A stretch of DNA of 64,000 nucleotides, from NCBI GenBank assembly GCA_965219085.1, contig OZ244720.1, forward strand, positions 1,995,429-2,059,428. The letters are read 5' to 3'. The notes below the pieces were generated by a model. It saw only the letters and a list, made by a program, of their open reading frames with translations, was not told the DNA's origin and did not search any database. The translations under genes were made by a program, and so were the position numbers. The stretch is from Dehalococcoidia bacterium (GTDB taxonomy: Bacteria; Chloroflexota; Dehalococcoidia; UBA2979). The stretch's first letter is position 1. Each line of letters opens with the position of its first letter. Shown in pieces: positions 23,988-56,930 of this stretch.

Positions 23988-24361
23988 GAGCGATGGACGG
24001 CCCGTAGCCCTCGCCACGGTCGGCGACCAGGTACACGCCCCGGCCTCGGACAGCGGGGCCGAGCCCCCTCGGCCCCGCGGTCCACCAGGGGTCGAGACGC
24101 GAGGCAACAGGGGCGTCCGCCCTCGCATCCGTGCACAGGGCCGCGCCGGGGGAGGCGCCGAGTGCACGTGCCCGGCGTGGTGTCCGCTCCGGACACACGC
24201 AGCGTGATCGCCGCGCGTTAACGGCTCGTTAGACGGCGTGCGCGTCTTCGCACGTTTTCTGGCCCCTCCTCGCCCGCCAACCGCTGCTCCCGGCTTGACA
24301 GGCCTTGCCCGTGCGGTCGAGGCTCCGGCGAGGCGCGATCCTGCGCGCGAGGAGGGGCCAG

Positions 24362-28527: not shown

Positions 28528-29219
<692 letters not shown>

Positions 29220-29223
<4 letters not shown>

Positions 29224-41015: not shown

Positions 41016-41915
41016 TCAGTCCGCCTGCAGCTCCGCGAGGTAGTCCGCGGCGAAGCGCTGTGCCAGTTCCGGGGCATCCTCGAGCTGGCGCGGATGCAGC
41101 CCGATGATCGCGTGATTCACCCCCGACTCGCGCGCGGCGTGTAGGCGCTCGGCGGTCTGCTCCAGCCGGTCGGCCGCGAGCGCGCCGACGTTGTTCATCG
41201 CGATCATCAGCGCGGCCGGGTCGCGGCCGGCGCGCGAGGCCGCCTCGCGCGCTGGCGTCATCGCCTCCTCGGCGCGGTTGAGGTAGCCGGCGTGGGCGAG
41301 CCAGCCGTCGCCGAGCTCGCCGATGCGGCGCATCTGCTGGGGGCTGTCGCCGCCGATCCAGATCGGCAGGTGCCGCGGCGGCAGCGGGCGCGCGGTCCAG
41401 CCGTCGACGGTGTGGAACTCGGTCTCGAGGCCGTCCACCCACTCCTCGTCGAGCAGCGCGCGGATGACGCGCACGCTCGCCTCGAAGCGGTCACCGCGGC
41501 GGTTCGTGGGCATGCCGAGGACTTCCATCTCCTCGCGCGCCCAGCCCATGCCGGCGCCGAGCAGGAAGCGCCCGCCCGCGAGGTGGTCGATGCTCGCGAC
41601 CATCTTCGCCGTGTAGGCGGCGCTGCGGTAGTTGAGCACCAGCACGGAAGTGCCGAGCCCGATCGTGCTCGTCACGCCCGCGACGAACGTCAGCTCCGTC
41701 AGCGGCTCGATGATCGAGTGGTCGACGTACGTGCGGGGCGGCACGACGCCGTCGGGCGCGTACGGGTACGGCGAGCGCCACTCGCGCGGGAACATGACGT
41801 GGTCGTTGACCCACAGCGCGTCGTAGCCGGCGTCCTCCGCCGCGCGCGCATGCCGCAGCACGAGGTCGCGCGAAGCCGCTTCGCCGAGCTGTGGCAGTTG
41901 CACTCCTACCTGCAT
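41016..41915 (-). CDS. LLM-class (luciferase-like) flavin/F420-dependent oxidoreductase
   Basis: MQVGVQLPQLGEAASRDLVLRHARAAEDAGYDALWVNDHV.. is the typical LLM N-terminus; about 300 aa. Confidence 0.75.
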   Translation of the reverse strand: MQVGVQLPQLGEAASRDLVLRHARAAEDAGYDALWVNDHVMFPREWRSPYPYAPDGVVPPRTYVDHSIIEPLTELTFVAGVTSTIGLGTSVLVLNYRSAAYTAKMVASIDHLAGGRFLLGAGMGWAREEMEVLGMPTNRRGDRFEASVRVIRALLDEEWVDGLETEFHTVDGWTARPLPPRHLPIWIGGDSPQQMRRIGELGDGWLAHAGYLNRAEEAMTPAREAASRAGRDPAALMIAMNNVGALAADRLEQTAERLHAARESGVNHAIIGLHPRQLEDAPELAQRFAADYLAELQAD

Positions 41916-42114
41916 CACGCCTCCGTTCGCGTCGCGAGGAACGTATGGAGCGCGCGCGCCCGGCGTCAAGGCGTCCCCGCGAGCAATGCAAGCCCGAGCG
42001 CACGCCGCTACGATGCGCTCAGGCCGCACCCCGCGCTGTGGCTTCGGGCGCGCCGCGCGCACGGACCTCGCACGCGGGCGGCAGCGCGCGGCCACCTGGG
42101 GAAGGACGGATAGC

Positions 42115-42832
42115 GATGCACGAGGCGCTCACGGTGGAGAAGACTGGTGGGATCGCGACCTTCACGATCACGAGGCCGCGCGTCAACGCGCTCAGCCTCG
42201 ACCTCCTCGAATCGTTCGCCGAGGAGTTGCACAGCGCCGCCGACGATCCCGACATCATGGTCGCGGTGTGGCGCAGCGGCCTGCCGAACATCTTCTGCGC
42301 CGGCTTCGACCTCAACGACAGCGGCCCCAGTTCGGCGCACCACATGCCCGGCGAGCGCACCGTGCGCGTGCGCAACGCGCAGACGGCGCTGCTCGACATC
42401 CCGATCCCGATCATCGTGGCCGTGAACGGGCCGGCGGTCGGGCTCGGCCTGCTCATGCCGGCGCTGTGCGACATCGTGGTGGCCGGGCGCAGTGCGCGCT
42501 TCGGGCTGCCCGAGATCCAGATCGGCGCCATCGGCGGCGCCGGCCATGCGCGCCGCATCCTGCCCGAGCCCGTCCTGCGCTACATGATGCTGACCGGCCG
42601 CCGCGTCACGCCCGAGTACCTCCAGCAGTGCGGCGCGATCGCGCTCGTCGTCGACGACGACCAGCTCGAGGCGGAGACGATGGCGATCGCGCGCGAGATC
42701 ACGACCTACGACCCGGTGGTCGTCCGCAACAACAAGATCGCGCTGGAGATGCTGCGAGGCGTCGACGACGTCGCCACCGTGTACGCGATCGAGCACAAGT
42801 GGGGCGCGGCGATCCGCGCCTCCCGCGAGTAA
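42115..42832 (+). CDS. enoyl-CoA hydratase/isomerase (crotonase family)
   Basis: ..IATFTITRPRVNALSLDL.., ..IFCAGFDL.., ..IVAVNGPAVGLG.. crotonase signatures. Confidence 0.8.
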
Positions 42833-42844
42833 CGAGGAGCCTCG

Positions 42845-44080
42845 ATGCCGAAGGCCCTCGCGGGCTACCGCATCTGCGACTTCACCGGCCAGCTGGCGGG
42901 CGCCGGGGCGACGCGCCACCTCGCCGCGTTCGGCGCCGAGGTGATCCGTATCGAGGACCCCGTGAATGAGGGGCGCTGGGACATCCTCCGCGGCCAGCCG
43001 CCGTACGTGGATGAGCGCCGCGGGATCAACCTCGGCGGTTCGTTCAACAACCACAACGTGGGGAAGCTCGGCATCACGCTCAACCTCCGCACCGAGCGCG
43101 GCAAGGAGCTGCTGACCGAGCTGGTCAAGGCGTCCGACGTGGTATCGGAGAACTTCTCGGCAGGCGTGATGGACCGGCTCGGATTCGGCTACGAGCAGTT
43201 GCAGGCCATCAAGTCCGACGTCATCTACGTCTCGAACAGCGGCTTCGGGAAGCAGGGGCCGTACGGCACGTACAAGACGTGGGGCCCGATCGTGCAGGCG
43301 GTGGCCGGGCTCACGTGGACCTCGAAGCTGCGCGACCAGCCGCCGGCCGGGTGGGGTTACTCCTACATGGACCACACCGGCGGCTACTACATGTGCATCG
43401 CCATCCTCGCCGCGCTGCATCACCGCAACGTCACCGGCGAGGGCCAGTGGGTCGACATGTCCTGCACCGACGCGGGCGCGACGCTGACCGGCCCCGCGAT
43501 CCTCGACTACACCGTCAATGGCCGCCCGACGCGCCGTGACGGCCTGCCCGACTCGAACCACAACCGCTGGCCCGCGATGGCCCCGCACGCCGTCTACCCA
43601 GCCGAGGGGGAGGACAACTGGATCGCCATCGCCTGCCGCGACGAGGCGGACTGGCACGCGCTGACCGCCGAGGTCGCCGAGCCGTGGACCGCCGACCCGC
43701 GTTTCGCGACCCTCGACGACCGTATCGAGCACGAGGCGGCGCTCGACGAGGCATTGGGCGGCTGGACTGCGTCGCGCGAGGCGTTCGCCACGGCTGAGCG
43801 CCTCCGCGCGGCGGGCGTGCCCACCTCGGCGGTCGCGCGCCCCGAGGACCGCATCGACCACGACGAGAACACGAGCGCGTGGGGGCTGTGGCCGGAGGTG
43901 CGGCAGACCGACATGGGCGCGGTGCGCGTCGATGGCGTGCCCGCGCACCTGAGCGAGACCGAATGGGAGCTCGGACGCGGCGCACCGAACCTCGGCGAGC
44001 ACAACGAGGAGGTCTACGGCGGACTGCTCGGCCTCGACGTCGGCGAGATCGCGAGCCTGCGCGAAGAGGGCGTGATTTGA
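42845..44080 (+). CDS. family-III CoA-transferase
   Basis: ..LAGYRICDFTGQLAGAGATRHLAAFGAEVIRIE..; 411 aa. Confidence 0.85.
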   Translation: MPKALAGYRICDFTGQLAGAGATRHLAAFGAEVIRIEDPVNEGRWDILRGQPPYVDERRGINLGGSFNNHNVGKLGITLNLRTERGKELLTELVKASDVVSENFSAGVMDRLGFGYEQLQAIKSDVIYVSNSGFGKQGPYGTYKTWGPIVQAVAGLTWTSKLRDQPPAGWGYSYMDHTGGYYMCIAILAALHHRNVTGEGQWVDMSCTDAGATLTGPAILDYTVNGRPTRRDGLPDSNHNRWPAMAPHAVYPAEGEDNWIAIACRDEADWHALTAEVAEPWTADPRFATLDDRIEHEAALDEALGGWTASREAFATAERLRAAGVPTSAVARPEDRIDHDENTSAWGLWPEVRQTDMGAVRVDGVPAHLSETEWELGRGAPNLGEHNEEVYGGLLGLDVGEIASLREEGVI

Positions 44081-44097
44081 CCGGCCCGAACGCTCCG

Positions 44098-45330
44098 ATG
44101 GGACCGATGCACGGCCTGCGCGTGATCGAGCTGTGCGAGGAGATCGGCGAGTTCGCCGGCAAGCTCCTCGCCGACATGGGCGCCGACGTCGTCAAGATCG
44201 AGCCGCCCGGCGGCTCGCGCACGCGCTCCTACGCGCCATTCCTCGACGACGTTCCGCACCCCGACCGCAGCCTCTTCTTCTGGCACTACAACACCAGCAA
44301 GCGCTCCGTCGCGCTCGACCTCGACGGCGAGGTGGGGCGCGAGGCGTTCCGCAAGCTCGTGGCCGGCGCCGACGTGCTCGTCGAGGACCGCGCGCCCGGC
44401 TGGCTGGCGGAGCGTGGCCTCGACTACGAGGACCTGCGCGGCGGCAACCCCGGCCTGATCCACTGCGCGATCACGCCCTTCGGGCGCTCCGGCCCGCGCG
44501 CAGGCGACCCCGCGACGGACCTCACGATCCTCGCGGGGGCCGGGCCTGCCTGGTCATGCGGCTACGACGACCACTCGATCCCGCCCGTGCGCGGCGGCGG
44601 CAACCAGGGCTACCAGACAGGCTGCCACTGGGCGCTGATCAGCATCCTCACCGCCGTGCTCTACCGCGACGGCGGCGGCGCGGGCCAGTTCATCGACGTG
44701 AGCCTGCACGCCGCCTCGAACGTCACGACCGAGGCGGGCAGCTACCAGTGGCTCGTCGCGCGTGAGACCGTGCAGCGCCAGACCGGACGCCACGCCGGCG
44801 TGACGCCCTCGGGGCCGACGCAGGTACAGGCGAAGGACGGCGTATGGATGAACACCGGGCTGTTCCCGCGCCGCCCGCACGAGTTCCGCATCCTCATCGA
44901 CTGGATGCAGGAGCTCGGCCTGTTCGACGAGTACGAGCAGTCGCCGCTGCTCGAGACGGCCGCCGGCATGGATCGCATGCTCGATATGGCCCGCGCCGCC
45001 GAGGACGAGGAAGAAGCAGCGCTCCTGAGCGCGGGCCGTGAGGCGATGATCTTCCTCGTGCAGCGCCTCGACGCCTACGAGTTCTTCTCGGGCGCGCAGG
45101 AGCGCGGCTTCCAGGTCGGCATCATCTACGCACCCGAGGACGTGATCGAAGACCCGCACTTCGTCGCACGAGGCTTCCCGACGGAGGTCGAGCACCCGGA
45201 ACTGGGCCGCTCGTTCGTCTACCCCGGCGCGCCGTACGCCTTCCGCGGCTCGCCGTGGGCGATCACGCGCCGCCCACCACTGCCCGGCGAGCACACCGCG
45301 GAGGTGCTCGCCCAACTCGACAGCGCCTGA
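44098..45330 (+). CDS. family-III CoA-transferase
   Basis: ..MHGLRVIELCEEIGEFAGKLLADMGADVVKIEPP..LPGEHTAEVL.. Confidence 0.85.
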   Translation: MGPMHGLRVIELCEEIGEFAGKLLADMGADVVKIEPPGGSRTRSYAPFLDDVPHPDRSLFFWHYNTSKRSVALDLDGEVGREAFRKLVAGADVLVEDRAPGWLAERGLDYEDLRGGNPGLIHCAITPFGRSGPRAGDPATDLTILAGAGPAWSCGYDDHSIPPVRGGGNQGYQTGCHWALISILTAVLYRDGGGAGQFIDVSLHAASNVTTEAGSYQWLVARETVQRQTGRHAGVTPSGPTQVQAKDGVWMNTGLFPRRPHEFRILIDWMQELGLFDEYEQSPLLETAAGMDRMLDMARAAEDEEEAALLSAGREAMIFLVQRLDAYEFFSGAQERGFQVGIIYAPEDVIEDPHFVARGFPTEVEHPELGRSFVYPGAPYAFRGSPWAITRRPPLPGEHTAEVLAQLDSA

Positions 45331-45340
45331 GGACAGCACC

Positions 45341-47872
45341 ATGACCGCATCACCCACGACCAACGGACAGGCCAGGCCCCTCGCGGGCATTCGCGTGCTC
45401 GACCTCGCCACCGGCTACTGCGAGATCACCGGTCGGCTGCTCGCCGACATGGGCGCCGAGGTGATCAAGATCGAGCCGCCCGGCGGACACCCCTCGCGCC
45501 GTCATCCGCCGTTCGTCGACGGCCGCGAGGGCGAGCTCGCCGGCTCGCTGCACTGGGCCGCCTACGCCATCGGCAAGCGCAGCATCGTGCTCGACCTCGA
45601 CGACGAGGTCGACCGCGCGCGGCTGCGCGAGCTCGCGCGCGGCGCCGACGTGCTCGTGGAGTCGCTCGAGCCGGGCGCGCTCGACGCGCTGGGGCTCGGC
45701 TACGCGGACCTGGGCGCGCTCAACCCCGCGTTGGTCTACGCCTCGATCAGCCCGTTCGGGCAGAGCGGCCCGCACGCGCACCGGCCGGCCACCGACCTCA
45801 CGTTGCAGGCAGCGGGTGGGCTCGTCTCGATGCAGGGCGACCGCGACCGGCCGCCGATCCCCGTCGGCTTCCCGCAGGCTGGCCTGCACGCGGGCGTGCA
45901 GGCCGCCGCCGACATCGTCGTCGCGCTGAATGAGCGCGACCACTCCGGGCTCGGCCAGCACCTCGACACCTCGATGCAGGCGTGCATCGTGTGGACGCTG
46001 CTCGACGCGACCGGCTACCCGCCGAACGAGGGCGGCGACAAGCCCGGCTACGGCGACGACCGCTCCAACCCCGTCCCGCGTCGGACGCCCGGGCTCGACT
46101 TGCCGACCATGCTCGAGGTGGCCGACGGGTACACGACGAGCTCGATGGGCGCCGGCCCGCAGATGACGAACACCGTGAACCAGGCCGTTGCCTGGATGCT
46201 GCGAGACGGCCCCGGGTTCCCCGAACACCTCCGCGGCATCGACTGGCAGCACTGGCACGAGGACTGGGCAGAGCCCGGCGTTGCGCCCGAGAGCGCGCCG
46301 CTGGTGAACGAGGCGCTCCAGCACGTCCTCGCCTTCCTGCGCTCCAGGACAAAGGCCGAGCTGCACCCGTGGTCGCTCGAGAGCAAGGCGCTCGTCGCGA
46401 AGATCGCGACGGCCAGGGACCTGCTCGAAGACCCGCAGCTCGAGGCGCGCGACTACTGGCAGCAAGTCGGCGGGCACACCGTGCCCGGCCCCTTCGTGCG
46501 CCTCTCGCGCACGCCGATCGGCTCGGTCGAGCCTGCTCCGGCGCTCGGCGACGGCGCTGCGCTCCTCGACACGCCGCGCGCGCTGGCCGTCAACGGCGCG
46601 CGATCCTCGAACGGCTCGACCACCCCGGACGGCTCGACCACCTCGGACGGCCGGGGCGGGCGGCGCCCGCGGACGTTCGAGGGGCTGAAGGTCGCCGACT
46701 TCTCGTGGTACGGCGTGGGGCCGCTCATCGCCAAGGCGCTCGCGGATCACGGGGCGACGGTGGTGCACGTGGAGTCCGAGCGGCACTTCGACGGCCTGCG
46801 CCTGGGGCCGCCATTCAAGGACGGCGAGTTCGACATCAACAAGGCGCAGTTCTTCGCCGACTACAACTCCTCGAAGCTCGGCATGTCGATCGACCTCTCG
46901 CACGAGGTCGGCCGTGAGATCGCGCGCGACCTCACGCAGTGGGCTGACGTCATGGTGGAGAGCTTCACGCCCGACACGATGGAGCGTCACGGCCTCGACT
47001 GGGCCGTGCTCGGCCCCGACCACCCCGACCTCATCATGGTCCGCACCTGCCTCCGAGGGCAGACCGGGCCGGAGCGCCGCTACACGGGCTTCGGCATGCA
47101 GGGCGCGGCACTGGCCGGGCTCCACGCCGTCACCGGCTGGGCGGACCGCCCGCCCGCCGGCCCGTACGGCGCGTACACCGACTTCATCAACCCGCGCTTC
47201 GGGCTCCTCGCCGTCGCGTCCGCGATCTACGAGCGGCGTCGCAGCGGCAGGGGACAGCTCATCGACCTCTCGCAGGGCGAGGCGGCGATCCACTTCGCCG
47301 CGCCGCTCGTGCTCGACTACGCCGCGAACGGCCGCGTCGCCGGACCCGCCGGTCACGACTCGATGACCGACGCGCCGAACGGCGTCTACGCCTGCCGCGG
47401 CGTCGAGCGCTACGTCGCCATCTCGTGCGCGACGACCGGGCAGTGGCGCGCACTGCGCGACCTCGCCGGCCTCGAGGGCTTCGATGGGGTGGAGTACGAG
47501 ACGTACGCGGGCCGGCAGGCCGACCGTGCGCGCATCGACGCCGCACTCGCGGCGTGGTGCGCGGACCAGGACGGGCACGAGCTGGCGGCGCGGCTCGCCG
47601 ACGCGGGCGTGCCCGCCTCGGCGGTGCTGCGCGCGACGGACCTCTACGAGGACGCGCAGCTCGCGCACCGCGGCTTCTTCGTGACGCTCGACCACCCGGC
47701 GATGGGCCCGACGCCGTACGACGGCCTCGCGACGCAGTACTCGGGATCGCCCGGCAGGCTCAGCAAGGCCGCGCCGATGTTCGGCGAAGACACGCACTAC
47801 GTGCTGACCGAGCTGCTCGGCGCGAGCCCCGAGGACGCGGCGCGCTTCGCTGAGAGCGGCGCGCTCACGTAG
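45341..47872 (+). CDS. single-chain tandem fusion of two family-III CoA-transferase domains (843 aa)
   Basis: Domain 1 ..LAGIRVLDLATGYCEITGRLLADMGAEVIKIEPP..; linker NGARSSNGSTTPDGSTTSDGRGGRRP, encoded by an 18-bp tandem repeat; domain 2 ..LKVADFSWYGVGPLIAKALADHGATVVHVE..; continuous frame, no stop. Confidence 0.85.
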   Translation: MTASPTTNGQARPLAGIRVLDLATGYCEITGRLLADMGAEVIKIEPPGGHPSRRHPPFVDGREGELAGSLHWAAYAIGKRSIVLDLDDEVDRARLRELARGADVLVESLEPGALDALGLGYADLGALNPALVYASISPFGQSGPHAHRPATDLTLQAAGGLVSMQGDRDRPPIPVGFPQAGLHAGVQAAADIVVALNERDHSGLGQHLDTSMQACIVWTLLDATGYPPNEGGDKPGYGDDRSNPVPRRTPGLDLPTMLEVADGYTTSSMGAGPQMTNTVNQAVAWMLRDGPGFPEHLRGIDWQHWHEDWAEPGVAPESAPLVNEALQHVLAFLRSRTKAELHPWSLESKALVAKIATARDLLEDPQLEARDYWQQVGGHTVPGPFVRLSRTPIGSVEPAPALGDGAALLDTPRALAVNGARSSNGSTTPDGSTTSDGRGGRRPRTFEGLKVADFSWYGVGPLIAKALADHGATVVHVESERHFDGLRLGPPFKDGEFDINKAQFFADYNSSKLGMSIDLSHEVGREIARDLTQWADVMVESFTPDTMERHGLDWAVLGPDHPDLIMVRTCLRGQTGPERRYTGFGMQGAALAGLHAVTGWADRPPAGPYGAYTDFINPRFGLLAVASAIYERRRSGRGQLIDLSQGEAAIHFAAPLVLDYAANGRVAGPAGHDSMTDAPNGVYACRGVERYVAISCATTGQWRALRDLAGLEGFDGVEYETYAGRQADRARIDAALAAWCADQDGHELAARLADAGVPASAVLRATDLYEDAQLAHRGFFVTLDHPAMGPTPYDGLATQYSGSPGRLSKAAPMFGEDTHYVLTELLGASPEDAARFAESGALT

Positions 47873-47972
47873 CAGGCCGCCCATGGACGCCCTGTCTACA
47901 ATCGGGGCGGCCGGACGCGTCGCGCCGCAGCGGACGCGGCGGGCAGGCGAAGGAGGACCCGTGGCGGAGACG

Positions 47973-49133
47973 ATGCGAGGGAAGACGGCGATCGTCGGTC
48001 TCGCCGAGACCACCTACTACAGGCGCGGTGGCGCCGAGGACGCCGAGTTCAAGCTCGGCCTCCAGGCCGTGCAGGCGGCCGCCGAGGACGCCGGCATCGA
48101 CGTCCGCGACATCGACGGCTTCTGTTCCTACAGCAATGACCGCAACGACCCGACGCGCTTCCATTCCGCGCTCGGCCTGCGGGACCTCAAGTGGTCCTCG
48201 ATGGTCTGGGGCGGTGGTGGCGGCGGCTGCGCGGGCGCCGTCGCGATGGCCGCCGCGGCGGTACACGCCGGGATCGCGACGAACGTCGTGGTCTTCCGCG
48301 CGCTCGCGCAGGGCCAGTTCGGGCGCTTCGGCGCCGCGAGCGCGTCCGGGCCGCTGGAGGGCGCGCCCGCGTACACGCAGCCGTTCGGGCAGATGTCGCC
48401 GGCGCAGTCGTACGCGATGAAGGTCACGCGCTTCATGCACGACCACGGCGTGCAGCAGAGCGCGCTGCGCGCCGTCTCGCTCGCGAGCTACTACCACGCC
48501 CAGCGCAACCCGCGCGCCGTCATGTACGGCCGCCCGCTCGACGAGGAGCGCTACGACAACTCGCGCTGGATCGTCGAGCCGTTCCACCTCTACGACTGCT
48601 GCCAGGAGAACGACGGCGCCGCCGCGGTCATCGTGACCACGGCCGAGCGCGCCCGAGACATGAAGAATAAGCCCGTCTACATCCTCGCCGGTGGGCAGGG
48701 CTCGCAGTACCGGCAGTCGGCGTGGGCGCACAACGCACCCGACTACGGCACCTCGAACTTCAAGAACAACGCGGCCTCGCTGTTCGACATGGCGCAGGTC
48801 AAGCCCGAGGAGGTCGACGTCGCGCAGGTCTACGAGAACTTCACCGGCGGCGTCGTGATGAGCATCGTCGAGCACGGCCTCATCCCCGTGGAGCAGGCCA
48901 ACGAGGAGTTCACGCTCGACAACTTCCGGTTCGACGGCGGCAAGCTGCCGCTCAACACCTCGGGCGGCAACCTCGCCGAGTGCTACATGCACGGCTTCGA
49001 GCTGGTGATCGAGGCGGCGCGGCAGGTCCGCGGCGAGTCGACCGCGCAGGTCGACGACCCGGAGATCTCGCTCGTCGCGGGCGGGCCGATGGTCGAGCCG
49101 ACGAGCAACCTGCTGCTCGGCGCGCAGGTCTAG
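47973..49133 (+). CDS. thiolase-like protein, SCP-x / lipid-transfer-protein type
   Basis: ..AIVGLAETTYYRRGG..; thiolase fold without the classic biosynthetic-thiolase signatures; C-terminal ..NTSGGNLAECYMHGFE.. typical of SCPx/Ltp thiolases. Confidence 0.8.
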   Translation: MRGKTAIVGLAETTYYRRGGAEDAEFKLGLQAVQAAAEDAGIDVRDIDGFCSYSNDRNDPTRFHSALGLRDLKWSSMVWGGGGGGCAGAVAMAAAAVHAGIATNVVVFRALAQGQFGRFGAASASGPLEGAPAYTQPFGQMSPAQSYAMKVTRFMHDHGVQQSALRAVSLASYYHAQRNPRAVMYGRPLDEERYDNSRWIVEPFHLYDCCQENDGAAAVIVTTAERARDMKNKPVYILAGGQGSQYRQSAWAHNAPDYGTSNFKNNAASLFDMAQVKPEEVDVAQVYENFTGGVVMSIVEHGLIPVEQANEEFTLDNFRFDGGKLPLNTSGGNLAECYMHGFELVIEAARQVRGESTAQVDDPEISLVAGGPMVEPTSNLLLGAQV

Positions 49134-49147
49134 GGCGGGAGCGAACC

Positions 49148-49618
49148 ATGGCGAACGCAACCAAAGCCGACGTCGAGGCGGGCGGCAGCTACTTCCCGAC
49201 GGCCGTCGCCCTCCCGGTGGCGATGGTGGATGGCCTCGACGCGCCGCACTACGAGGGCAAGGAGCGCGGCGAGCTGTGGGTGCAGTACTGCACCGCCTGC
49301 GAGGCGCACCAGTGGGGCCCCGAGTGGATTTGCCACCGCTGCCTCGGCTACGACCTTGAGTGGCGGCAGGTGGCGGCCGAGGGCCGGATCTTCTCGTGGG
49401 AGCGGATCTGGCACCCCGTCCACCCCGACCTCGCCGAGGCGGTGCCGTACGTCGTGGTGCTGATCGAGCTCCCGCACGCGGACGACATCCGCATGGTCGG
49501 CAACCTCCTCGGCGACCCCGAGGAGGAGATCGTCATTGGTTCGGAGGTCGAGGCGGTGTTCGAGCACCACCCTGATCACGATCCGGCCTACACTCTCGTG
49601 CAGTGGTCCCGGACGTAG
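49148..49618 (+). CDS. DUF35 protein (rubredoxin-like Zn ribbon plus OB fold), partner of SCP-x thiolases
   Basis: CTACEAHQWGPEWICHRCLG Zn ribbon followed by an OB-fold segment; immediately downstream of the thiolase-like gene. Confidence 0.8.
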   Translation: MANATKADVEAGGSYFPTAVALPVAMVDGLDAPHYEGKERGELWVQYCTACEAHQWGPEWICHRCLGYDLEWRQVAAEGRIFSWERIWHPVHPDLAEAVPYVVVLIELPHADDIRMVGNLLGDPEEEIVIGSEVEAVFEHHPDHDPAYTLVQWSRT

Positions 49619-49707
49619 GGGACGAACGCAGCAAGATGGACGCGCCGGCCGAGGCCTGAGCGCGGCGACCGCCCCCGGCACACCCCGGGGCGGGAAAGGA
49701 TGGGGAC

Positions 49708-50868
49708 ATGGACTTCGAGATGCCGGCGGAGGTGCTCGACTTCCGCAAGCAGGTGCAGGACTTCATCGCCTCGCACCGCACACCCGAACTCGACGCCGAG
49801 ATCGCCGAGAGCCACATCCACGGCTACGGCCCCGCGTCGCAGGGCTTCATGCGCGCGATGGCGCAGGAAGGCCTCGCCGCCGTCGCATGGCCCGAGGAGT
49901 ACGGCGGCCAGGGCAAGGGCGCGCTCTTCCTGTGGACCCTCGCCGAGGAGTGCGCGCGTGAGGACGTGCCGTTCGACAACCTCACCTTCATCTCCGTCGG
50001 CCCGAGCATCATGCGCAACGGCACGGAGGAGCAGAAGCAGGAGATCCTCCCCAAGGTGCTCAGGGGCGAGATCAACTTCGCCCTCGGATACACCGAGCCG
50101 AACGCCGGCACCGACCTCGCCTCGCTACAGACGCGCGCCGTCCGCGACGGCGACGAGTGGGTGATCAACGGGCAGAAGATCTACACCTCGTCTGCCCACC
50201 TCGCGACGCACGTCTGGCTCGCGGCGCGGACCGAGCCGGATGCGCCGAAGCATCGCGGCATCTCGACCTTCGTGCTGCCGCTCAACACCCCCGGCATCAC
50301 CGTTCGCCCGCTGTGGATCATGGGCGAGGGCCGCACCAACGAGACCTTCTGGGAGGACGTGCGTATCCCCGCCGACTCGCTGATCGGCGAGGAGAACCGC
50401 GGCTGGTACATCGTCAGCGGCGCTCTCGACCTCGAGCGTGTGGCCATCGGCACCTACCGCCCGCTCGAGAAGACGGTCGAGGACATGGTGGCGCACATCA
50501 AGGAGGCGCGGCCCGAGCTCCAGGACGACGCCTTCGCCCGCCAGGCGGTGGCCGACGCGCTCATGCGCGTCGAGGTCGCCCGCGCGCTCGCGACGAACAA
50601 CGCCGCGATGGTGCACAGCGACCTGATCCCGACGATGGAAGCCTCGATGGGCAAGGTCTGGACGACGGACTCCCGCGAGCGCGTGAACGACGCCTTCATG
50701 GACATCCTCGGCCGCACCGGCGGGATGCAGGCCGGCGTCGAGGACGCCCCGCTCGACGGCGCGCTCGATGCGGCGTGGCGCGGTTCCCCGGTGGGACGTT
50801 TCGGCGGAGGCACCAACGACATCCAGCGGCGCATCATCGCGACCCGCGGCCTCGGGCTGCCTCGCTAG
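49708..50868 (+). CDS. acyl-CoA dehydrogenase (first of an adjacent pair)
   Basis: 386 aa; ..YGGQGKGALF.., ..NGQKIYTSSAH.., C-terminus ..IQRRIIATRGLGLPR. Confidence 0.85.
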   Translation: MDFEMPAEVLDFRKQVQDFIASHRTPELDAEIAESHIHGYGPASQGFMRAMAQEGLAAVAWPEEYGGQGKGALFLWTLAEECAREDVPFDNLTFISVGPSIMRNGTEEQKQEILPKVLRGEINFALGYTEPNAGTDLASLQTRAVRDGDEWVINGQKIYTSSAHLATHVWLAARTEPDAPKHRGISTFVLPLNTPGITVRPLWIMGEGRTNETFWEDVRIPADSLIGEENRGWYIVSGALDLERVAIGTYRPLEKTVEDMVAHIKEARPELQDDAFARQAVADALMRVEVARALATNNAAMVHSDLIPTMEASMGKVWTTDSRERVNDAFMDILGRTGGMQAGVEDAPLDGALDAAWRGSPVGRFGGGTNDIQRRIIATRGLGLPR

Positions 50869-50877
50869 GAGGACGAC

Positions 50878-51951
50878 ATGGATATCCGTCTCAGCGAGCT
50901 GCAGGAGTTGCTCCGCACCAACGCGCAGGAGTTCTTCGAGCGCGAGGTCACCTTCGAGCGCATCCGCGAGATCGAGGCAGCCGACACGCCCGACATGCAA
51001 CTGTGGGACCAGATGGTCGAGCTCGGCTGGACCTCGCTGCCCATCGCCGAGGAGTACGGCGGTCAGGGCGGCACCCTGCTCGACACCTCGATCCTCGTCA
51101 ACGAGGCCTGCCGCGCCGCCTTGCCGAGCCCCTTCACCTCGACGCTGATCGCGGCCGTTGCCGTGCAGCGCCACGGCTCCGAGGACCTCAAGCAAGCTCT
51201 GCTGCCGCGCCTCGCCGACGGCCTCGCGATCTCCTCGGCGGTGCTCGAGGCCGACGACGCCATCTACGGCGAACCGCAGACGACGTCCGACGGCTCGACC
51301 GTCAGCGGCGAGAAGCGCTTCGTCGAGTTCGGCGCGACGAGCGACGTGCACCTGGTCACGGCGACGCGTAACGGCTCGCAGGGCATCGCGGTGGTGTCGC
51401 GCGACCAGGCCGGCGTGGAGCTGTCGCCCGTCCAGACGATCGGCGCGATTCCCCAGGCCCACGTCCGCTACGACGGCGCCGCCGTCGACGGCTGGATCGA
51501 GGGCGCGGAGGCCGTCGATGGCCTGCGCGACCTCGGCACGGCGCTCACGGCGTTCGAGGCCTACGCGTACGCGCAGAAGGCGCTCGACCTCACCATCGAC
51601 TACGTGCAGCTGCGCGTCCAGTTCGGCCAGCCGCTCGGCGCGTTCCAGGCGGTGCAGATGCACTGCGCCGACATGGCGACGCTCGTCGAAGGCTCGCGCT
51701 TCCTCGCGCAGGAGCTGCTATGGAACCTCGACCAGGGCGAGGTGACGCGCCGCGACGTGGCGATCGTGAAGGCGATCACCTCGAAGATGGCGCCGCAGGT
51801 GCTGCAGGACTGCCACATGCTGCACGGCGGCATCGGCTACATGCAGGAGTACGACCTGCACTTCTTCACGCGGCGCGGCAAGGAAGCCTCGCTGCGCTGG
51901 GGCTCCGCCCGCGAGGCGATGAACGTCGTCGTGGACGCCGCCTTCGCGTAG
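50878..51951 (+). CDS. acyl-CoA dehydrogenase-fold protein (second of the pair, shorter, possible beta subunit)
   Basis: 357 aa; ACAD fold (..EEYGGQGGTLLD.., ..MLHGGIGYMQEYDLHFFTRR..); 9-bp spacing from the upstream ACAD gene. Confidence 0.75.
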   Translation: MDIRLSELQELLRTNAQEFFEREVTFERIREIEAADTPDMQLWDQMVELGWTSLPIAEEYGGQGGTLLDTSILVNEACRAALPSPFTSTLIAAVAVQRHGSEDLKQALLPRLADGLAISSAVLEADDAIYGEPQTTSDGSTVSGEKRFVEFGATSDVHLVTATRNGSQGIAVVSRDQAGVELSPVQTIGAIPQAHVRYDGAAVDGWIEGAEAVDGLRDLGTALTAFEAYAYAQKALDLTIDYVQLRVQFGQPLGAFQAVQMHCADMATLVEGSRFLAQELLWNLDQGEVTRRDVAIVKAITSKMAPQVLQDCHMLHGGIGYMQEYDLHFFTRRGKEASLRWGSAREAMNVVVDAAFA

Positions 51952-51972
51952 CGACTGGCAGCACGGACGGCG

Positions 51973-52584
51973 GTGGGCAGCGTCGAGCTATTGCGGGAGC
52001 GTGGTGCTGCCGTGTCTGTTGATCGGATGACCAACTGGCAGATCGCTGCCCTCGCCCTCTACTCGCTGGGTGGAGCAACCTCGCGGCAACACCAAGAGGA
52101 TGTCGCCGTGAAGTGCTATGAGTTTGCCCCTCGGAGATTTCGGTGGGAGAAGTACGAGTACCCGAACCTCGATATCGTCGGCAAGGCGCTGCGTGACGCG
52201 AAGCACGTCAAGAATGGCAGCCTTGTCAGTGGCGATAAGCGCCTTGGCTGGCTCCTGAGTCCTGCTGGTGTCGACTGGGCATCCCGGAATGGGCCAGCTG
52301 GTCGGGACATGGACGACGGCGGCTCGTCTGTACTGCCTGCGGCCGAGGGCAGAGAGTTGCGGCTACTGAAGTCACACCAACTGTTCGGGGGGTGGGAGGC
52401 CGGGAGCGAAGCGGTGTCCGTCTTCCTGGTAGCCGACGCAGTCGGCCTCACGGCAGACGCGCCGATTCAATCGATCGCGCGGCGCATCACGGAGCTGCAA
52501 AGCGCCGCCCGAGCCGGGCGGCAACGCGATGTGGAAGGATTCTTGAGATGGCTCATGGACAGCCTGAACGCGTCAAGCTCGTAA
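51973..52584 (+). CDS. hypothetical protein, first gene of the low-GC island
   Basis: 203 aa, no recognisable motif; local GC is about 58% against about 72% in flanking genes; 3' end overlaps the next ORF. Confidence 0.5.
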   Translation: MGSVELLRERGAAVSVDRMTNWQIAALALYSLGGATSRQHQEDVAVKCYEFAPRRFRWEKYEYPNLDIVGKALRDAKHVKNGSLVSGDKRLGWLLSPAGVDWASRNGPAGRDMDDGGSSVLPAAEGRELRLLKSHQLFGGWEAGSEAVSVFLVADAVGLTADAPIQSIARRITELQSAARAGRQRDVEGFLRWLMDSLNASSS

Positions 52585-53686
52585 CGACTCAACGCGCCCA
52601 TCAGCAGGATGCCGCAAACGCGATGGGCTCGGATCCTATCAAGGCGATTATTGAGTTGGTGACCAATGCTGACGATGCCTACGACGGCGTTACAACGAAC
52701 CGCAAGGGGAAGATTCGGATCGAATGGGAGCGACACCGCAAGACCCCGACGGTCCTCCGTGTCCTCGACCGCGCCCGCGGGATGACAAGGGATGAGATGC
52801 TTGAGCGACTCGGCAGGCTCGGCGAACGCACAAGCGGATTTGAGCATGGCGCACAACGCCGGGGCTTCTTCGGCCGGGGCGGGAAGGACGTGGCGCACTT
52901 CGGGCCAGTGCGGTGGGAATCGAAGCGGAGCGGCGAGCACACCGGATTCGAGATCGAGTACAAATCCGGGGCCTCGGTTGACGCCCTCGTATACGAGCTC
53001 CCGGCAGTCGAGTCCCGCGACACGGGCACAACAGTCACTCTTGAGATTCAGCCTCGCTTCCAAAGTCCGCTGGAGTCGACCCTCATGGACAGACTCAAGC
53101 GGCACTATGCCCTGCGGCCGATACTTGACGACCGTCGCAACCGCGAGATTACCCTGAACGATCAGAAGGTCGTGTTCGAGCCACCTCGGGGCAGATTGCT
53201 CCTCGATCGCGAGAAGCACTCGATCCGGGGCTACGATGGTTTCGAGTGCGTCATCACGATTACGGAGTGCGCTGAGTCTCTCGACGATGACCAGTCCCCA
53301 GATTACTGGCGGCACTCGCTCCTGATCACGTCGGGGCGTGCAGCGTATGAGGTCTTTCAGGGCGGCAAGTTCTCACGCGGCCCGCATGCTCAATACCTGG
53401 GAAGGCTCTTCGGCACTGTTGACGTACCCGGCATCAACGAACTCATCCGCGAGCATGATGACCGTGTCGAGGCCGGGCTCGACCCGACCGAAACGCGATG
53501 CTGGCCGAAATCCTTGCCTCGACAGTAGTGCGGAGTAGGCTGCAGGAGAAGTATCAGGAGCGCCACGACGTAGCACGGCTATTCTTCGAGTACCAGAACG
53601 ACCTCGCGAAACTGTTGCCGCGCGTGCATGCCGCGCTCGTTCCCGCAGCCGAGCGCCGCAGCGTTGAGCCATGGCGACAAGGCTGA
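52546..53686 (+). CDS. GHKL-superfamily (Bergerat-fold, HATPase_c-like) ATPase; C-terminus reached through a +1 frame change near 53480
   Basis: N-box IIELVTNADDAY, G1 box VLDRARGMTRDE, G2 box GFFGRGGKDVAHFG; the frame ends ..DPTETRCWPKSLPRQ* at 53528 but the +1 frame continues protein-like (..MLAEILASTVVRSRLQEKYQERHDVARLFFEYQNDLAKLLPRV..) to 53686. Confidence 0.6.
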
Positions 53687-53711
53687 GTGCTGAGGCGCCC
53701 ACAGCCCCTGG

Positions 53712-54911
53712 TCAGGCGACGACGCCCCTCGCCTTGAGCGCCGCGATCGACTCGGCGGACTCGCCGAGCTCGGCGAGCACCTCGTCGGTGTGCCGGCCGA
53801 GGTGCGCAGGGGCGCTGCGCACGTTGCCCGGTGTGCCCAGCAGCTTCGGCGCGACGCCGACGTGGCGCACGGTCCCCGCGCCCACGCCCTCGCCCTCCAC
53901 CTCGATCGCCATCTCGCGCTCCCGCTGGTGGGGGTCGTCGAGCATCTCGTCGAGGTCGAGCACGGGCGTCAGGCATGCGTCGAGGTGGCCGAAGTCGGCG
54001 AACCACTCGTCGCGCGGGCGTTCGCGGAAGCGTGCTGCGAAGGCGGCCTGCATCCCGGCCTGGCGGTCGGGATCGTTCTGGTGCGGGACGAACTCCTCGA
54101 AGCCGAGCGCCTTGCACAGCTCCTCGAAGAAGTAGGGCTCGATCGCGCCGACGCTGATCCAGCGGCCGTCGGCGCACTCGTAGACCTGGTAGTAGCAGCG
54201 CGCGCCGGCGAGCGTGTGGTCGCCGCGGCGCGGCGGCCCGGCCCCGGCGAGCATCGTCGCGACGTGCGAGATCATGAGCGAGGCGACGCCGTCCGACATC
54301 GCGGCGTCGACGTCCTGGCCGTGGCCGGTGCGCTCGCGCGCCTGTAGCGCGAGCACGATGCCGAACGCGGCCATCAGCCCGCCGCCGGCGAAGTCGGCGA
54401 TGATGTTGAGCGGGATCACCGGGTCGCCCTGCACGTTCCCGATCGACCCGAGCGCGCCGCCGATCGAGATGTAGTTGATGTCGTGCCCGGCGCGCGGCTC
54501 ATATGGTCCGGTGCGCCCGAAGCCCGACACCGAGCACGTGATGATGCGCGGGTTGATAGCCTCGAGGCTCGCGTAGTCGATGCCGAGGCGGTTCGTGACG
54601 CCCGGCCGGAAGCCGTCGATGACCACGTCGGAGCGCTCGACCAGGGCCCGGAAGATGCGCTGGCCGTCCTCGTCGCGGAGGTTGATGGCTGTGCCGCGCT
54701 TGTTGCGCCGGATCGCGTCGTGGGCGAGCGCGCGCGCCGCCTCCTCGGTCTCGGGCGCGCCGGCGCGCACGTTGAAGCGGGCGACGGCGCCCGGCGGCAC
54801 CTCGACCATGAACACGTCGGCGCCGAAGTCGGCGAGAAGCATGGAGGCGTACTGGCCGGGCGGGGTGCGGGACAGGTCGAGGACGCGAACGCCCTCCAGC
54901 GCCATGGTCAT
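53712..54911 (-). CDS. mcr: alpha-methylacyl-CoA racemase (family-III CoA-transferase fold)
   Basis: ..GHDINYISIGGALGSIG.., ..PLNIIADFAGGGLMAAFGIVLAL.., ..YYQVYECADGRWISVGAIEPYFFEEL.., ..FADFGHLDACLTPVLDLDEM.. match Mcr-type racemases. Confidence 0.8.
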   Translation of the reverse strand: MTMALEGVRVLDLSRTPPGQYASMLLADFGADVFMVEVPPGAVARFNVRAGAPETEEAARALAHDAIRRNKRGTAINLRDEDGQRIFRALVERSDVVIDGFRPGVTNRLGIDYASLEAINPRIITCSVSGFGRTGPYEPRAGHDINYISIGGALGSIGNVQGDPVIPLNIIADFAGGGLMAAFGIVLALQARERTGHGQDVDAAMSDGVASLMISHVATMLAGAGPPRRGDHTLAGARCYYQVYECADGRWISVGAIEPYFFEELCKALGFEEFVPHQNDPDRQAGMQAAFAARFRERPRDEWFADFGHLDACLTPVLDLDEMLDDPHQREREMAIEVEGEGVGAGTVRHVGVAPKLLGTPGNVRSAPAHLGRHTDEVLAELGESAESIAALKARGVVA

Positions 54912-55590: not shown

Positions 55591-56469
55591 CTAGGTAAGT
55601 GGCGTTGAAGGATGGTTTCGCCAGGTCACATGAGAGCGCTGGGGATCGGCCTTGAGCCATTCCGCAACCCGCTCACGCCATAGAGGCCGAATGCCGCGGG
55701 GCGCAAGCTCGACCAACGCCCCGTCTTCAATGAGCCCGGCGTCGACTAGCCTTGCGACGGCGCGTGTTTCACGGCGCGTGTGTGATCGCTCGTCCGTTGC
55801 TCGTTGCTCCATTTCGCGAGGCGAGACGGTGAAGTCCTCGACCTCCTGCAATGGCCAGACCTGCGAGACCGAGAGCACGACGTCGTGCTCGGTGCGGTAA
55901 GCGTTGAACTCGATCAACGAGACCTCAACGCCCATCTCGGTCAGCCAGACGGCGCTCGCGGTGACTTGCGGCGGGAAGCTCGCCGCCACCAGAGCGATGC
56001 GTGGCCGCCGGAGCAAGTCCGGGTCGAGCTCACCGCCGGCGTGCTCCTCGAGTTGGACAAGGGCGTTCTCGGCTGACACCAACTCCGTACCCTCCCGCGA
56101 CAGGTAGTCGGCGTGCCGTTCGCTGAGTGTCTCCGGCGTGAAGCGGCTCGCGAAGGCCGCGTACTTGACTGCCTGCATCCCGACAGTGTCGGGCGCCGGC
56201 CCGCGTTTCAACTCGGCCACGAGGAGCCGCCCCTCGCCGTCGAGGCCGAGCAGATCGAGGCGGTCTGCCGCGCGTCCGTCGCGCGCCTGCCATGCGGCGA
56301 ACTCGAACGTCACGATGCGGATGTCGTCGCCGAGGATCTCCGGGTTGTTGCGTACCCACTCTTGCAGGTCGGACCGCTCGCGCAGTCCCGCTTCGGCAAG
56401 GCTGATCGGTTGCGCGGGCTGCGCCGCGCCGGGCTGGACGGTGAAGATCAGCTCACTGGGCATGCGCAC
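55591..56469 (-). CDS. NucS/DUF91-like PD-(D/E)xK nuclease-family protein
   Basis: ..ERSDLQEWVRNNPEILGDDIRIV..DRLDLLGLDGEGRLLVAELKRGPAPDTVGMQAVKYAAF.. matches the DUF91 nuclease core (E..L..nP.L....iDll..d..g..vViElKr). Confidence 0.7.
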   Translation of the reverse strand: MRMPSELIFTVQPGAAQPAQPISLAEAGLRERSDLQEWVRNNPEILGDDIRIVTFEFAAWQARDGRAADRLDLLGLDGEGRLLVAELKRGPAPDTVGMQAVKYAAFASRFTPETLSERHADYLSREGTELVSAENALVQLEEHAGGELDPDLLRRPRIALVAASFPPQVTASAVWLTEMGVEVSLIEFNAYRTEHDVVLSVSQVWPLQEVEDFTVSPREMEQRATDERSHTRRETRAVARLVDAGLIEDGALVELAPRGIRPLWRERVAEWLKADPQRSHVTWRNHPSTPLT

Positions 56470-56654
56470 CTCCCGCGCTGATGCAGGCTACGCAACGAGC
56501 GTGATGATGTCACGGTGCGGGGTGGGTGAAGATGTAGCGCAGGTTCTCGCGCTTGGATGGCGAAGTTCGCGCGCGTCTGCTCCCTGGTGAGCCGGCCCCC
56601 GTAATCGGATTGGCGCGAGCTGCGACGCCGATATGTGTAGCCACTCACAGGACG

Positions 56655-56739
56655 GCACAGCAAGACGCCCGCCTGAGGGCGGGTGTCCCTGTGCGTTGCG
56701 GCTGGAGCGTTGGCTGCTAGCGCGAGCCTCGCAGGCGCG
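56655..56739 (+). repeat. direct repeat copy 1 (85 bp): duplicate of the dppC 3' end (last 7 codons plus stop) and its terminator hairpin
   Basis: About 93% identical to 58325..58408; contains the GC palindrome GACGCCCGCC-TGAG-GGCGGGTGTC and a decoy ..RLRGSR* coding end. Confidence 0.85.
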
Positions 56740-56930
56740 TTGTGGGTGGTGACTCGTTCGCAAATAGCGATGGGCGCTGGTTGCGCTATCGCTAACAACG
56801 GCCACGGCAGGCATGCTCAGGTAGTGTTTGATGGGGTATTCGAAGATAACGGCGCTGACTCTTCTCGCTACCGCTAACAACAGACGCCTCCCTCGATCGT
56901 TATTTGTGATAAGGACCATGTGCGATAATA

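Follow-up and report, generated by a model that had tools for sequence, protein, structure and literature searches.

We describe a gene module within a 64,000-nucleotide stretch of contig OZ244720.1 from a Dehalococcoidia bacterium (assembly GCA_965219085.1; the whole stretch is hereafter called the window), and read it, with moderate confidence, as a catabolic operon by which a bulky acid (probably 2-methyl-branched and/or alicyclic) would have its carboxylic side chain shortened without the use of ATP or of a thiolase. SAR202 and other marine or sponge-associated Dehalococcoidia carry dozens of CaiB/BaiF coenzyme A (CoA) transferases, whose roles have been described as unknown (PMC5395668, PMC6306507). 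Each enzyme type in the module is known, and the CaiB/BaiF expansion of SAR202-like bacteria is already noted in the literature without a function; what appears to be new is the conserved coupling of BbsEF-type CoA-transferases, heteromeric as well as fused, with a YENF-clade aldolase, a DUF35 protein and steroid-type acyl-CoA dehydrogenases (ACADs), together with the finding that an abundant family of "acetyltransferases" is predicted to be without thiolase chemistry. The sequences show homology, catalytic-residue patterns and conserved linkage, and from these we infer the direction of flux, the CoA donor, the complexes formed, the hydratase that acts and the substrate.

At about 70% G+C, the window gives crowded six-frame lists of open reading frames (ORFs), so genes were called by third-position GC and then checked against Pfam; in-frame third-position GC (GC3) is 0.93-0.97 for the called module genes. 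All eight genes of the module lie on the plus strand with intergenic gaps of 9-89 bp, and the region considered, 41016-51951, runs exactly from the stop of a divergent luciferase-like monooxygenase (LLM) gene to the stop of the ACAD beta gene. The genes and strands named in an earlier reading made from the letters alone (the sequence-only reading), including the LLM gene just upstream on the other strand, are present, with GC3 and Pfam in agreement. The features of the locus are:

41016-41915, minus strand: LLM oxidoreductase, F420-dependent, divergent from the operon (PF00296, 3.6e-47; TIGR03619)
41987-42017, plus strand: promoter-like element TGCAAG-N16-TACGAT, about 100 nt 5' of the first gene
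42116-42832, plus strand: atypical crotonase-fold enoyl-CoA hydratase homologue (ECH), 238 aa (PF00378, 4e-37)
42845-44080, plus strand: CoAT1, family-III CoA-transferase of BbsEF chain-B type, predicted catalytic, 411 aa (9FN0_B, 6.4e-60)
44107-45330, plus strand: CoAT2, family-III CoA-transferase of BbsEF chain-A type, no catalytic Asp, 407 aa (9FN0_A, 9.4e-54)
45341-47872, plus strand: fused double family-III CoA-transferase, 843 aa (two PF02515 stretches)
47961-49133, plus strand: LTP, putative Ltp2-like retro-aldolase of thiolase fold, 390 aa (6OK1_A, 4.5e-68)
49148-49618, plus strand: free-standing DUF35 protein, zf-ChsH2 plus OB_ChsH2_C (PF01796, PF12172)
49708-50868, plus strand: ACAD alpha (predicted catalytic), ChsE4/Tcur3483 type, 386 aa (6WY8_B, 2.9e-73)
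50878-51951, plus strand: ACAD beta (predicted non-catalytic), ChsE5/Tcur3481 type, 357 aa (6WY8_A, 5.5e-29)
53712-54911, minus strand: alpha-methylacyl-CoA racemase, family III, MCR type, 399 aa, convergent with the operon (1X74_A, 6.6e-71)

The reading turns on the thiolase-fold protein LTP. Compared with all PDB sequences, LTP has its top match in 6OK1_A, the Ltp2 of Thermomonospora curvata (TcLtp2; 233 bits), followed by the uncharacterised "thiolase" 4U4E (3e-41) and, third-best, by 9MYR_A, the bile-acid aldolase Sal (7e-32); BbsB (7PXP_C, 5.5e-16, 62 bits), the archaeal thiolase 6ESQ_A (8.9e-15) and, weakly, PhlC (5.3e-09) lie further down. Steroid side-chain retro-aldolases of the Ltp2 type convert 17-hydroxy-3-oxo-4-pregnene-20-carboxyl-CoA into androstenedione and propionyl-CoA. 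In Ltp2, Tyr294 of the YDHF motif serves as base, Tyr344 as acid and His296 as oxyanion hole; SCP2 thiolases carry HDCF and Sal carries YDCY at this motif, and a Gly at the thiolase nucleophile position precludes thiolysis (PMC12329534). Y291-E-N-F of LTP aligns with Y294-D-H-F of Ltp2, and Y342 (ECYMHG) with Tyr344: both catalytic tyrosines are present, and YDHF itself is not intact, Asp being replaced by Glu and His296 by Asn. Neither thiolase cysteine is found, since a Gly stands at the nucleophile position (GGGGGG-C-AG) and an Asn at that of the acid/base Cys of HDCF-type motifs, so LTP cannot be a thiolase; by residue logic it would be an aldolase, without being Ltp2 itself. The sequence-only reading had called it an SCP-x-type thiolase, a name borne out neither by these residues nor by the 233 bits to Ltp2 against 62 to BbsB. 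The Cys of GGGCAG was considered as a displaced nucleophile and rejected, being Gly or Ser in relatives.

This residue pattern is a property of a large family. All 29 orthologues whose genes are linked to that of the fused transferase carry YENF plus the second Tyr, as do 79 of 80 relatives from metagenomes, which were fetched with patterns that did not contain YENF, and Y291 is kept throughout (29/29 and 80/80). Among representatives of clusters at 50% identity, the nearest clusters (at least 44% identity to LTP) carry YENF or YDNF plus Tyr, and canonical YDHF plus Tyr appears only at 36-42% identity, for which reason we place LTP in a clade sister to Ltp2, outside Ltp2 itself. The family counts 5647 homologues at E <= 1e-20 among 8000 candidates scored, and soil, sludge, freshwater and marine metagenomes are rich in the YENF clade. 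Named relatives are mostly annotated in public as "acetyl-CoA acetyltransferase", which flags a large, systematically misannotated family that has the Ltp2 tyrosine pair in place of the thiolase cysteines.

The DUF35 Zn-ribbon/OB partner that had been noticed beside the thiolase-fold gene carries both expected domains. Its best solved match is 6OK1_B, the ChsH2 DUF35 domain that binds Ltp2 (8.3e-12), and its second-best is 9MYR_B, the CtShy DUF35 that binds Sal (4.5e-11); the DUF35 protein of the archaeal HMGCS complex is a marginal match, and BbsA is absent from the PDB matches at E up to 0.01. Four cysteines form a zinc ribbon (C48-x2-C51-x10-C62-x2-C65) that is conserved in relatives, and the C-x2-C-x10-C-x2-C spacing is that of TcChsH2(DUF35) (PMC12329534). 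Single-chain DUF35-LTP fusion proteins occur in some organisms, and we presume that the DUF35 protein is the partner of the LTP aldolase.

The two ACAD genes lie 9 bp apart and encode distinct subunits, 23% identical to each other. The alpha subunit matches 6WY8_B (Tcur3483) and 4X28_A (ChsE4, 2.4e-70) far ahead of the next ACAD (1.8e-37), and the beta subunit matches 6WY8_A (Tcur3481) and 4X28_D (ChsE5, 2.2e-22); at E values near 1e-70 for alpha and of 1e-22 to 1e-29 for beta, ChsE4-ChsE5 (FadE26-FadE27) and Tcur3481-Tcur3483 are relatives and not orthologues. They are nevertheless the best solved relatives and share adjacent genes and a catalytic Glu in alpha only, differing from the window in gene order, which here is alpha then beta. 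ACADs of this class are heterotetramers with two FAD. In such heteromers alpha holds the catalytic Glu, the isoalloxazine ring and the substrate, and beta contacts the ADP-ribose of FAD (PMC10925408). E243 of the window alpha subunit (LDLER) aligns with catalytic E247 of ChsE4 and is kept in 16 of 16 relatives; beta has Leu at this position and a gap opposite the alpha segment TEPNAGTD (TEPxAG segment), so that the catalytic Glu is confined to alpha. The predicted pair matches a steroid-type alpha2beta2 heteromer, in line with the heteromeric alpha/beta arrangement that the sequence-only reading had proposed. The best NCBIfam match of the ACADs is the pimeloyl-CoA dehydrogenase PimC. Local alignment around Pro91 of ChsE4, a marker of a large cavity, is ambiguous, and we draw no claim from it.

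For all four transferase domains of the operon the closest solved relative by sequence is BbsEF, the succinyl-CoA:(R)-benzylsuccinate CoA-transferase (PDB 9FN0/9FOL): CoAT1 matches chain B of 9FN0 at 6.4e-60 (next match 3.5e-40), CoAT2 matches chain A at 9.4e-54 (next match 4.6e-37), and the C-terminal domain of the fused transferase matches chain B at 5.6e-75. The transferases are thus nearer to BbsEF than to formyl-CoA, oxalate or carnitine transferases, and the module is not one of ordinary fatty-acid beta-oxidation, so the outcomes that the sequence-only reading named as its own refutation are not borne out. Identity to BbsEF, about 30-36%, is too low for donor or acceptor specificity to be carried over. 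We took the adduct residue of BbsEF from PDB titles, where 9FOL is named a "D178-CoA adduct"; counted on the CoAT1 alignment, this residue falls on the Asp of the chain-B motif YTDH in 9FN0, and it aligns with Asp176 of CoAT1 (YMDH) and D614 of the fused transferase (YTD). CoAT2 has Tyr at this position (NQGY), like 9FN0_A (NQAY), and the N-terminal domain of the fusion has Gly, within a PQA[GAS]xH motif that is Asp-free in all relatives, D614 being invariant. In CoAT1/CoAT2 and in the two halves of the fusion, the Asp therefore belongs to one type of domain only, and the fusion consists of an A-type domain, a low-complexity linker (about residues 405-445) and a B-type catalytic domain. An AlphaFold (AF2) model of the fusion, the sole transferase modelled, has a predicted template-modelling score (pTM) of 0.77 and a mean predicted local distance difference test score (pLDDT) of 69.6; in a Foldseek search its closest fold is that of BbsEF chains B/D (5.5e-30, target TM 0.84-0.86). 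Differences from BbsEF include a window unit that is a single-chain fusion, A-type then B-type, and an organism that looks aerobic, with a Baeyer-Villiger monooxygenase (BVMO) and a cytochrome oxidase (Caa3) assembly factor in the window.

A second CoA-transferase pair with an ACAD, which the sequence-only reading had placed at 24.3-28.2 kb, is indeed found at 24305-26889 and 26999-28201 (the ACAD on the minus strand). The pair is again chain-B-like plus chain-A-like (43% and 36% identical to CoAT1/CoAT2), and the ACAD is of alpha type, 42% identical to the operon alpha, with PimC as its best NCBIfam match and without an adjacent beta subunit. By residue pattern, the window is predicted to hold three transferase units, one of them fused, in each of which a catalytic domain is matched by a non-catalytic one. 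A two-component system at 28537-30479 follows the second pair and its ACAD. Outside this lineage, a plasmid tblastn with the fused transferase gave one match at >=80% coverage, on plasmid 2 of A. aromaticum EbN1, where two adjacent transferase genes are collinear with the N- and C-terminal domains of the fusion (35.5% identity over 90% of the length). Unlike the window, that plasmid has the two genes unfused and a decarboxylase (UbiD/UbiX genes alongside) as partner in place of an aldolase; we take these genes to be the anaerobic o-phthalate cluster. A Paraburkholderia plasmid match was rejected as a fused transferase because its genes are separate.

The remaining catalytic genes fit less evenly. 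The ECH has PaaF as its best PDB match (3e-25), belongs to the crotonase fold (PF00378) and reaches no NCBIfam cut-off. We take the two catalytic Glu positions (GGGxE and PE) to be those of Glu144 and Glu164 in rat ECH. The second is kept in the window (E133, PE motif), and the first is Leu113, with Leu or Met in all 15 orthologues, so the protein is not a two-Glu hydratase and the hydration step is uncertain; the earlier label "enoyl-CoA hydratase" stands as to fold and not as to the first catalytic Glu. The racemase fits well: M. tuberculosis MCR (1X74_A) scores 242.6 bits and the best transferase 154 (4e-44), which bears out the Mcr racemase placed at 53.7 kb in the sequence-only reading. 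Its AGH143DINY and D173FAGGG motifs are conserved, both the His and the Asp being present. In MCR (Rv1143) the corresponding AGHDINY and DF(A)GGG motifs presumably hold the catalytic His126 and Asp156. The window protein, which shares these motifs with its best match, differs from MCR in a 17-residue insertion near the N-terminus and in length (399 aa vs 360 aa). In the related loci L003, L005 and L007 the racemase gene lies about 40 bp from the ACAD-beta stop. The LLM oxidoreductase exceeds its TIGR03619 cut-off (216 bits vs 166.9) and holds the same position in all five loci of the type A described next.

A scan of one genome per species for the fused transferase gave 76 loci, onto which the window proteins were mapped by tblastn; of the candidates scored against this transferase, 2397 are homologues at E <= 1e-30, with the top ones in metagenome-assembled genomes (MAGs) of Chloroflexota/Dehalococcoidia. 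Five species-level Dehalococcoidia genomes, several of them sponge-derived MAGs, repeat the window order (type A: LLM on the minus strand, ECH, CoAT, CoAT, fused transferase, LTP, DUF35, ACAD, ACAD, racemase on the minus strand), with 80-86% identity to the window in the fused transferase and 85-97% in the remaining module proteins; in one (L007/L080) synteny extends more than 20 kb to both sides. Identical order in five species-level genomes argues that the module is more than chance. Type B loci, found in 10 genomes plus L001 (L001, L008-L014, L016, L017 and L020), contain ECH, the fused transferase, two small hot-dog proteins, DUF35 and the ACAD pair, and have neither the two single transferases nor a thiolase-fold gene; the hot-dog pair (PF13452 at 64 bits plus a weak MaoC match, zero NCBIfam matches) occupies the place of LTP. 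In the 26 type C loci (about 50-56% identity) LTP comes after the fused transferase, with DUF35 behind it in each case where the contig extends far enough. Overall the fused transferase adjoins an LTP gene in 31 of the 76 loci, and in metagenomes DUF35 lies directly 3' of the LTP gene in 64 of 66 loci, a family-III transferase being present in 16 of the 28 LTP loci that have >=4 kb on each side. Three metagenome loci (L084, L085 and L096) place a hot-dog pair directly 5' of LTP, as in igr, with DUF35 next in line if the contig reaches that far. These loci and the swap between types A and B argue that hydratase and aldolase form one functional unit whose genes are spread differently by lineage.

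Several variations on these loci were noted in passing. The tail of ACAD alpha reads FGGGTNDIQR in the window (50800-50830) and four related loci, and FAGGTNDIQR in eleven others; these eleven appear to be the type B operons, so that Gly/Ala would co-vary with the aldolase/hot-dog swap. PDB 6WY8 and 6WY9, both Tcur3483, differ at exactly this position, which may tune side-chain specificity. In L079, a type C locus from Dehalococcoidia, a 673-aa protein (14132-16153) with zero Pfam or NCBIfam matches begins within the end of the DUF35 gene, after fused transferase, LTP and DUF35, and may be a fourth component so far overlooked in that lineage. A fused-transferase paralogue, 54-56% identical, stands on the opposite strand about 2-4 kb downstream of the operon in L003 (20591-23029) and also in L009, L017 and L020, pointing to local expansion of the fused family.

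Operon organisation is supported by tight spacing, by Shine-Dalgarno sequences upstream of the module gene starts and by the conserved upstream element. TGCAAG-N16-TACGAT is the only well-conserved non-coding block in an alignment of ECH-upstream regions (window plus L003-L007), and it looks like an operon promoter, a putative role; a generic sigma-70 scan does not flag it, and the generic promoter/terminator scan gave counts near those of shuffled sequence. The LTP start was placed at GTG 47961, given its GGAGG Shine-Dalgarno sequence and a length that matches orthologues; ATG 47883 is also possible.

We propose that these enzymes would act in five steps. A BbsEF-type transferase (the CoAT1/CoAT2 heteromer or the 843-aa fusion) would charge the free acid with CoA taken from a donor thioester, either succinyl-CoA or the short acyl-CoA freed in the last step; the MCR-type racemase would provide the 2-methyl epimer that the dehydrogenase accepts; the alpha2beta2 ACAD would form the 2-enoyl-CoA, with alpha catalytic and beta structural; the enoyl-CoA would be hydrated by the atypical crotonase or by a MaoC-type hot-dog pair encoded elsewhere; and LTP-DUF35 would split the 3-hydroxyacyl-CoA by retro-aldol cleavage into a ketone or aldehyde and acetyl- or propionyl-CoA. 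Aldolytic cleavage, following igr logic, would account for the lack of a short-chain dehydrogenase/reductase (SDR) and of a true thiolase in the operon. Because LTP is not a thiolase, the pathway would follow igr/Ltp2 in going from dehydrogenase through hydratase to aldolase, and would depart from the Bbs scheme of dehydrogenase, hydratase, SDR and thiolase; the SDR hydroxyacyl-CoA dehydrogenase that the sequence-only reading advised seeking elsewhere in the genome would not be required.

The igr system of M. tuberculosis and T. curvata (ChsE1-ChsE2, ChsH1-ChsH2, Ltp2), which cleaves the C3 side chain of steroids, is a close known counterpart in logic, with the same order of alpha2beta2 ACAD, hydratase and DUF35-bound thiolase-fold retro-aldolase, and with neither SDR nor thiolase (PMC12502768, PMC12329534); the Ltp2-ChsH2(DUF35) complex 6OK1 is the best match of both LTP and the DUF35 protein, and both tyrosines and the C4 ribbon are shared. 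The window departs from it in carrying YENF and not YDHF, a DUF35 encoded by a separate gene and not as the ChsH2 C-terminus, a crotonase and no MaoC-type pair, family-III CoA-transferases instead of acyl-CoA synthetases, and a Chloroflexota host. Sal-Shy of Proteobacteria, an aldolase and hydratase acting on bile-acid C5 side chains (PDB 9MYR), likewise has a DUF35-bound thiolase-fold aldolase with Gly at the nucleophile position; Sal has Tyr302/Cys304 (YDCY), Gln for the second Tyr and a C3H1 DUF35, whereas the window has the Ltp2-type Tyr pair and a C4 ribbon.

The frequent linkage of LTP-DUF35 to family-III transferases (16/28 and 31/76 loci) suggests that the freed acyl-CoA or succinyl-CoA primes the next round, in parallel to succinyl-CoA in the Bbs pathway. 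A bolder and distinctly more tentative proposal is that fused transferase, YENF aldolase and DUF35 form a self-priming machine for CoA recycling in which the acetyl-CoA, propionyl-CoA or other short acyl-CoA released is the donor, with the YENF family an uncharacterised class of aldolases and one reason for the CaiB/BaiF expansion in SAR202-like Dehalococcoidia living on recalcitrant dissolved organic matter. If so, carboxylated side chains would be stripped from alicyclic or branched acids at no ATP cost.

Several observations weigh against the side-chain-shortening operon proposed here. With its first catalytic Glu replaced, the ECH may leave the window operon without a competent hydratase; type B loci have a hot-dog hydratase pair and no aldolase nearby, and neither version of the operon is demonstrably self-sufficient. 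The replacement of oxyanion-hole His296 by Asn and of Asp by Glu means that the chemistry of LTP could differ from that of Ltp2. The reading gives no reason for two transferase units in one operon, about half of the fused-transferase relatives in the 76-locus scan stand alone, and in the model of the fusion the active-site loops 161-175 and 571-617 have pLDDT below 50. No transporter, aldehyde dehydrogenase or regulator lies within the operon, and every transferase, ACAD, ECH and LTP falls short of the NCBIfam equivalog cut-offs.

A narrower version of the same reading makes the module a sterol or steroid side-chain unit, the Chloroflexota counterpart of igr/ChsE4-5, which would remove propionyl-CoA or acetyl-CoA from sponge-host or marine sterol acids, with CoA-transferases replacing FadD ligases. 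We regard this as possible and rather doubtful. Steroid enzymes are the best solved relatives of the ACAD pair, LTP and DUF35, by wide margins for LTP and ACAD alpha; the racemase has M. tuberculosis MCR as its best match, the nearest genomes are sponge-derived MAGs, and SAR202 bacteria have been proposed to oxidise sterol or hopanoid-like substrates (PMC5395668). However, the 64-kb window holds zero ring-degradation genes and has housekeeping flanks, LTP belongs to a YENF clade spread across soil, sludge, freshwater and marine habitats more widely than known steroid degraders, and alpha2beta2 ACADs also take non-steroid substrates, with PimC as the best NCBIfam match here. The Bbs parallel drawn in the sequence-only reading, a thiolytic beta-oxidation of aryl- or alkyl-succinates with succinyl-CoA released by a thiolase-DUF35 pair, holds for the transferases, which are nearest BbsEF and share its catalytic/non-catalytic split, and for the broad scheme in which a thiolase-fold protein is paired with DUF35, as in BbsAB. 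It fails for the rest: LTP has neither thiolase cysteine and scores far higher against Ltp2 than against BbsB, BbsA is not among the DUF35 matches at E up to 0.01, no BbsCD-type SDR lies in or beside the operon to complete the bbs set, and, compared with the bbs operon, the window also does not contain a Cys-bearing BbsB thiolase or bss genes. Fumarate-addition products form anaerobically, and the organism looks aerobic. Such a pathway is improbable as an account of the locus.

Still less probable is a reading of the fusion as a DddD-like transferase/lyase for dimethylsulfoniopropionate (DMSP) or a similar zwitterion, its neighbours being unrelated members of expanded paralogue families. Compared by architecture only, the two proteins are alike, each a single chain of about 820-840 aa with two tandem family-III domains; DddD has the same tandem CaiB layout at residues 1-416 and 439-821 (PMC7174347), it is the top Swiss-Prot match of some SAR202 transferases (PMC5395668), and about half of the fused-protein relatives occur without LTP. 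Yet the gene context differs, with no BCCT transporter or dddB/C-type genes nearby and the ddd context absent from the window and related loci; the closest solved relative of the fusion is BbsEF, nothing observed implies lyase activity, and the conserved neighbours (LTP-DUF35 linkage in 31/76 loci, the eight-gene order in five species) would be left unexplained. We give least credence of all to a biosynthetic operon in which LTP-DUF35 makes C-C bonds, like the archaeal thiolase/HMGCS/DUF35 complex or the PhlABC acylase. Condensing enzymes, too, have DUF35 proteins as scaffolds (the matches include 6ESQ and 5M3K) and aldol reactions are reversible, but LTP has no catalytic Cys for acyl-enzyme chemistry, its matches to the archaeal thiolase and PhlC are weak, the ACADs, racemase and CoA-transferases are catabolic in type, and there is no HMGCS-like gene.

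Read as a side-chain-shortening unit, the operon would tie the BbsEF-type subclass of CaiB/BaiF transferases to a defined chemistry of dehydrogenation, hydration and retro-aldol cleavage, turning "CoA shuffling" into a pathway that can be assayed. If the substrates are sterol-derived or carboxyl-rich alicyclic compounds, it would bear on recalcitrant marine carbon and on the degradation of host sterols; if they are ordinary branched acids, it would be a tidy case of pathway mosaicism.

Elsewhere in the window, flanking genes encode sulfite and phosphoadenosine phosphosulfate (PAPS) reductases, thioredoxin, an M20 peptidase and urease. The BVMO and esterase placed at 4.6-7.3 kb in the sequence-only reading are both present: an esterase of hormone-sensitive-lipase type (4613-5596; LipP1 equivalog, 353 bits vs a cut-off of 350) and, directly 3' of it, a type I BVMO (5673-7310; PtlE-like, 291 bits, below the cut-off). 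The two lie 35 kb away from the operon but could convert a ketone product by way of a lactone or ester.

Between ACAD beta and the racemase lies a 1.76-kb insertion (51952-53711; about 64% G+C, weak GC3) that is absent in L003, L005 and L007. Its two ORFs encode a 203-aa protein without a family match and a protein of about 330-378 aa with a weak GHKL ATPase match (HATPase_c_3, 1.2e-06); PADLOC returns nothing for either. At this site L004 carries a different, roughly 2.4-kb insertion, so the gap between ACAD beta and racemase may be an insertion hot spot. Just past the racemase, 55591-58142 holds two candidate anti-phage genes: one, on the minus strand, encodes a 292-aa protein with a match to the PADLOC candidate PDC-S11 (5e-49); the other encodes a Fic protein that matches SoFic (2.7e-113), and this Fic gene recurs in the syntenic relative L080.

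Two mobile elements occupy 8337-11253, between the BVMO and an ATP-binding cassette (ABC) transporter: an IS3-like pair (HTH_Tnp_1 at 8337-8633, rve integrase at 8663-9487) and a DDE_Tnp_1_4 transposase (9928-11253, minus strand); two small ORFs at 7777-8279 have no family match. The urease cluster (14359-18843) shows odd lengths, with an alpha subunit of 389 aa (Amidohydro_1), a 318-bp gap after ureB and a single 383-aa product carrying both UreF and UreG domains, which may be frameshifts, fusions or artefacts of GC3 gene calling. Finally, a 75-aa ORF at 2678-2905 (minus strand), adjoining a major facilitator superfamily (MFS) transporter gene, aligns with no more than the C-terminal 50 positions of the profile for family-III CoA-transferases (3.6e-08) and is probably the remnant of a decayed paralogue.

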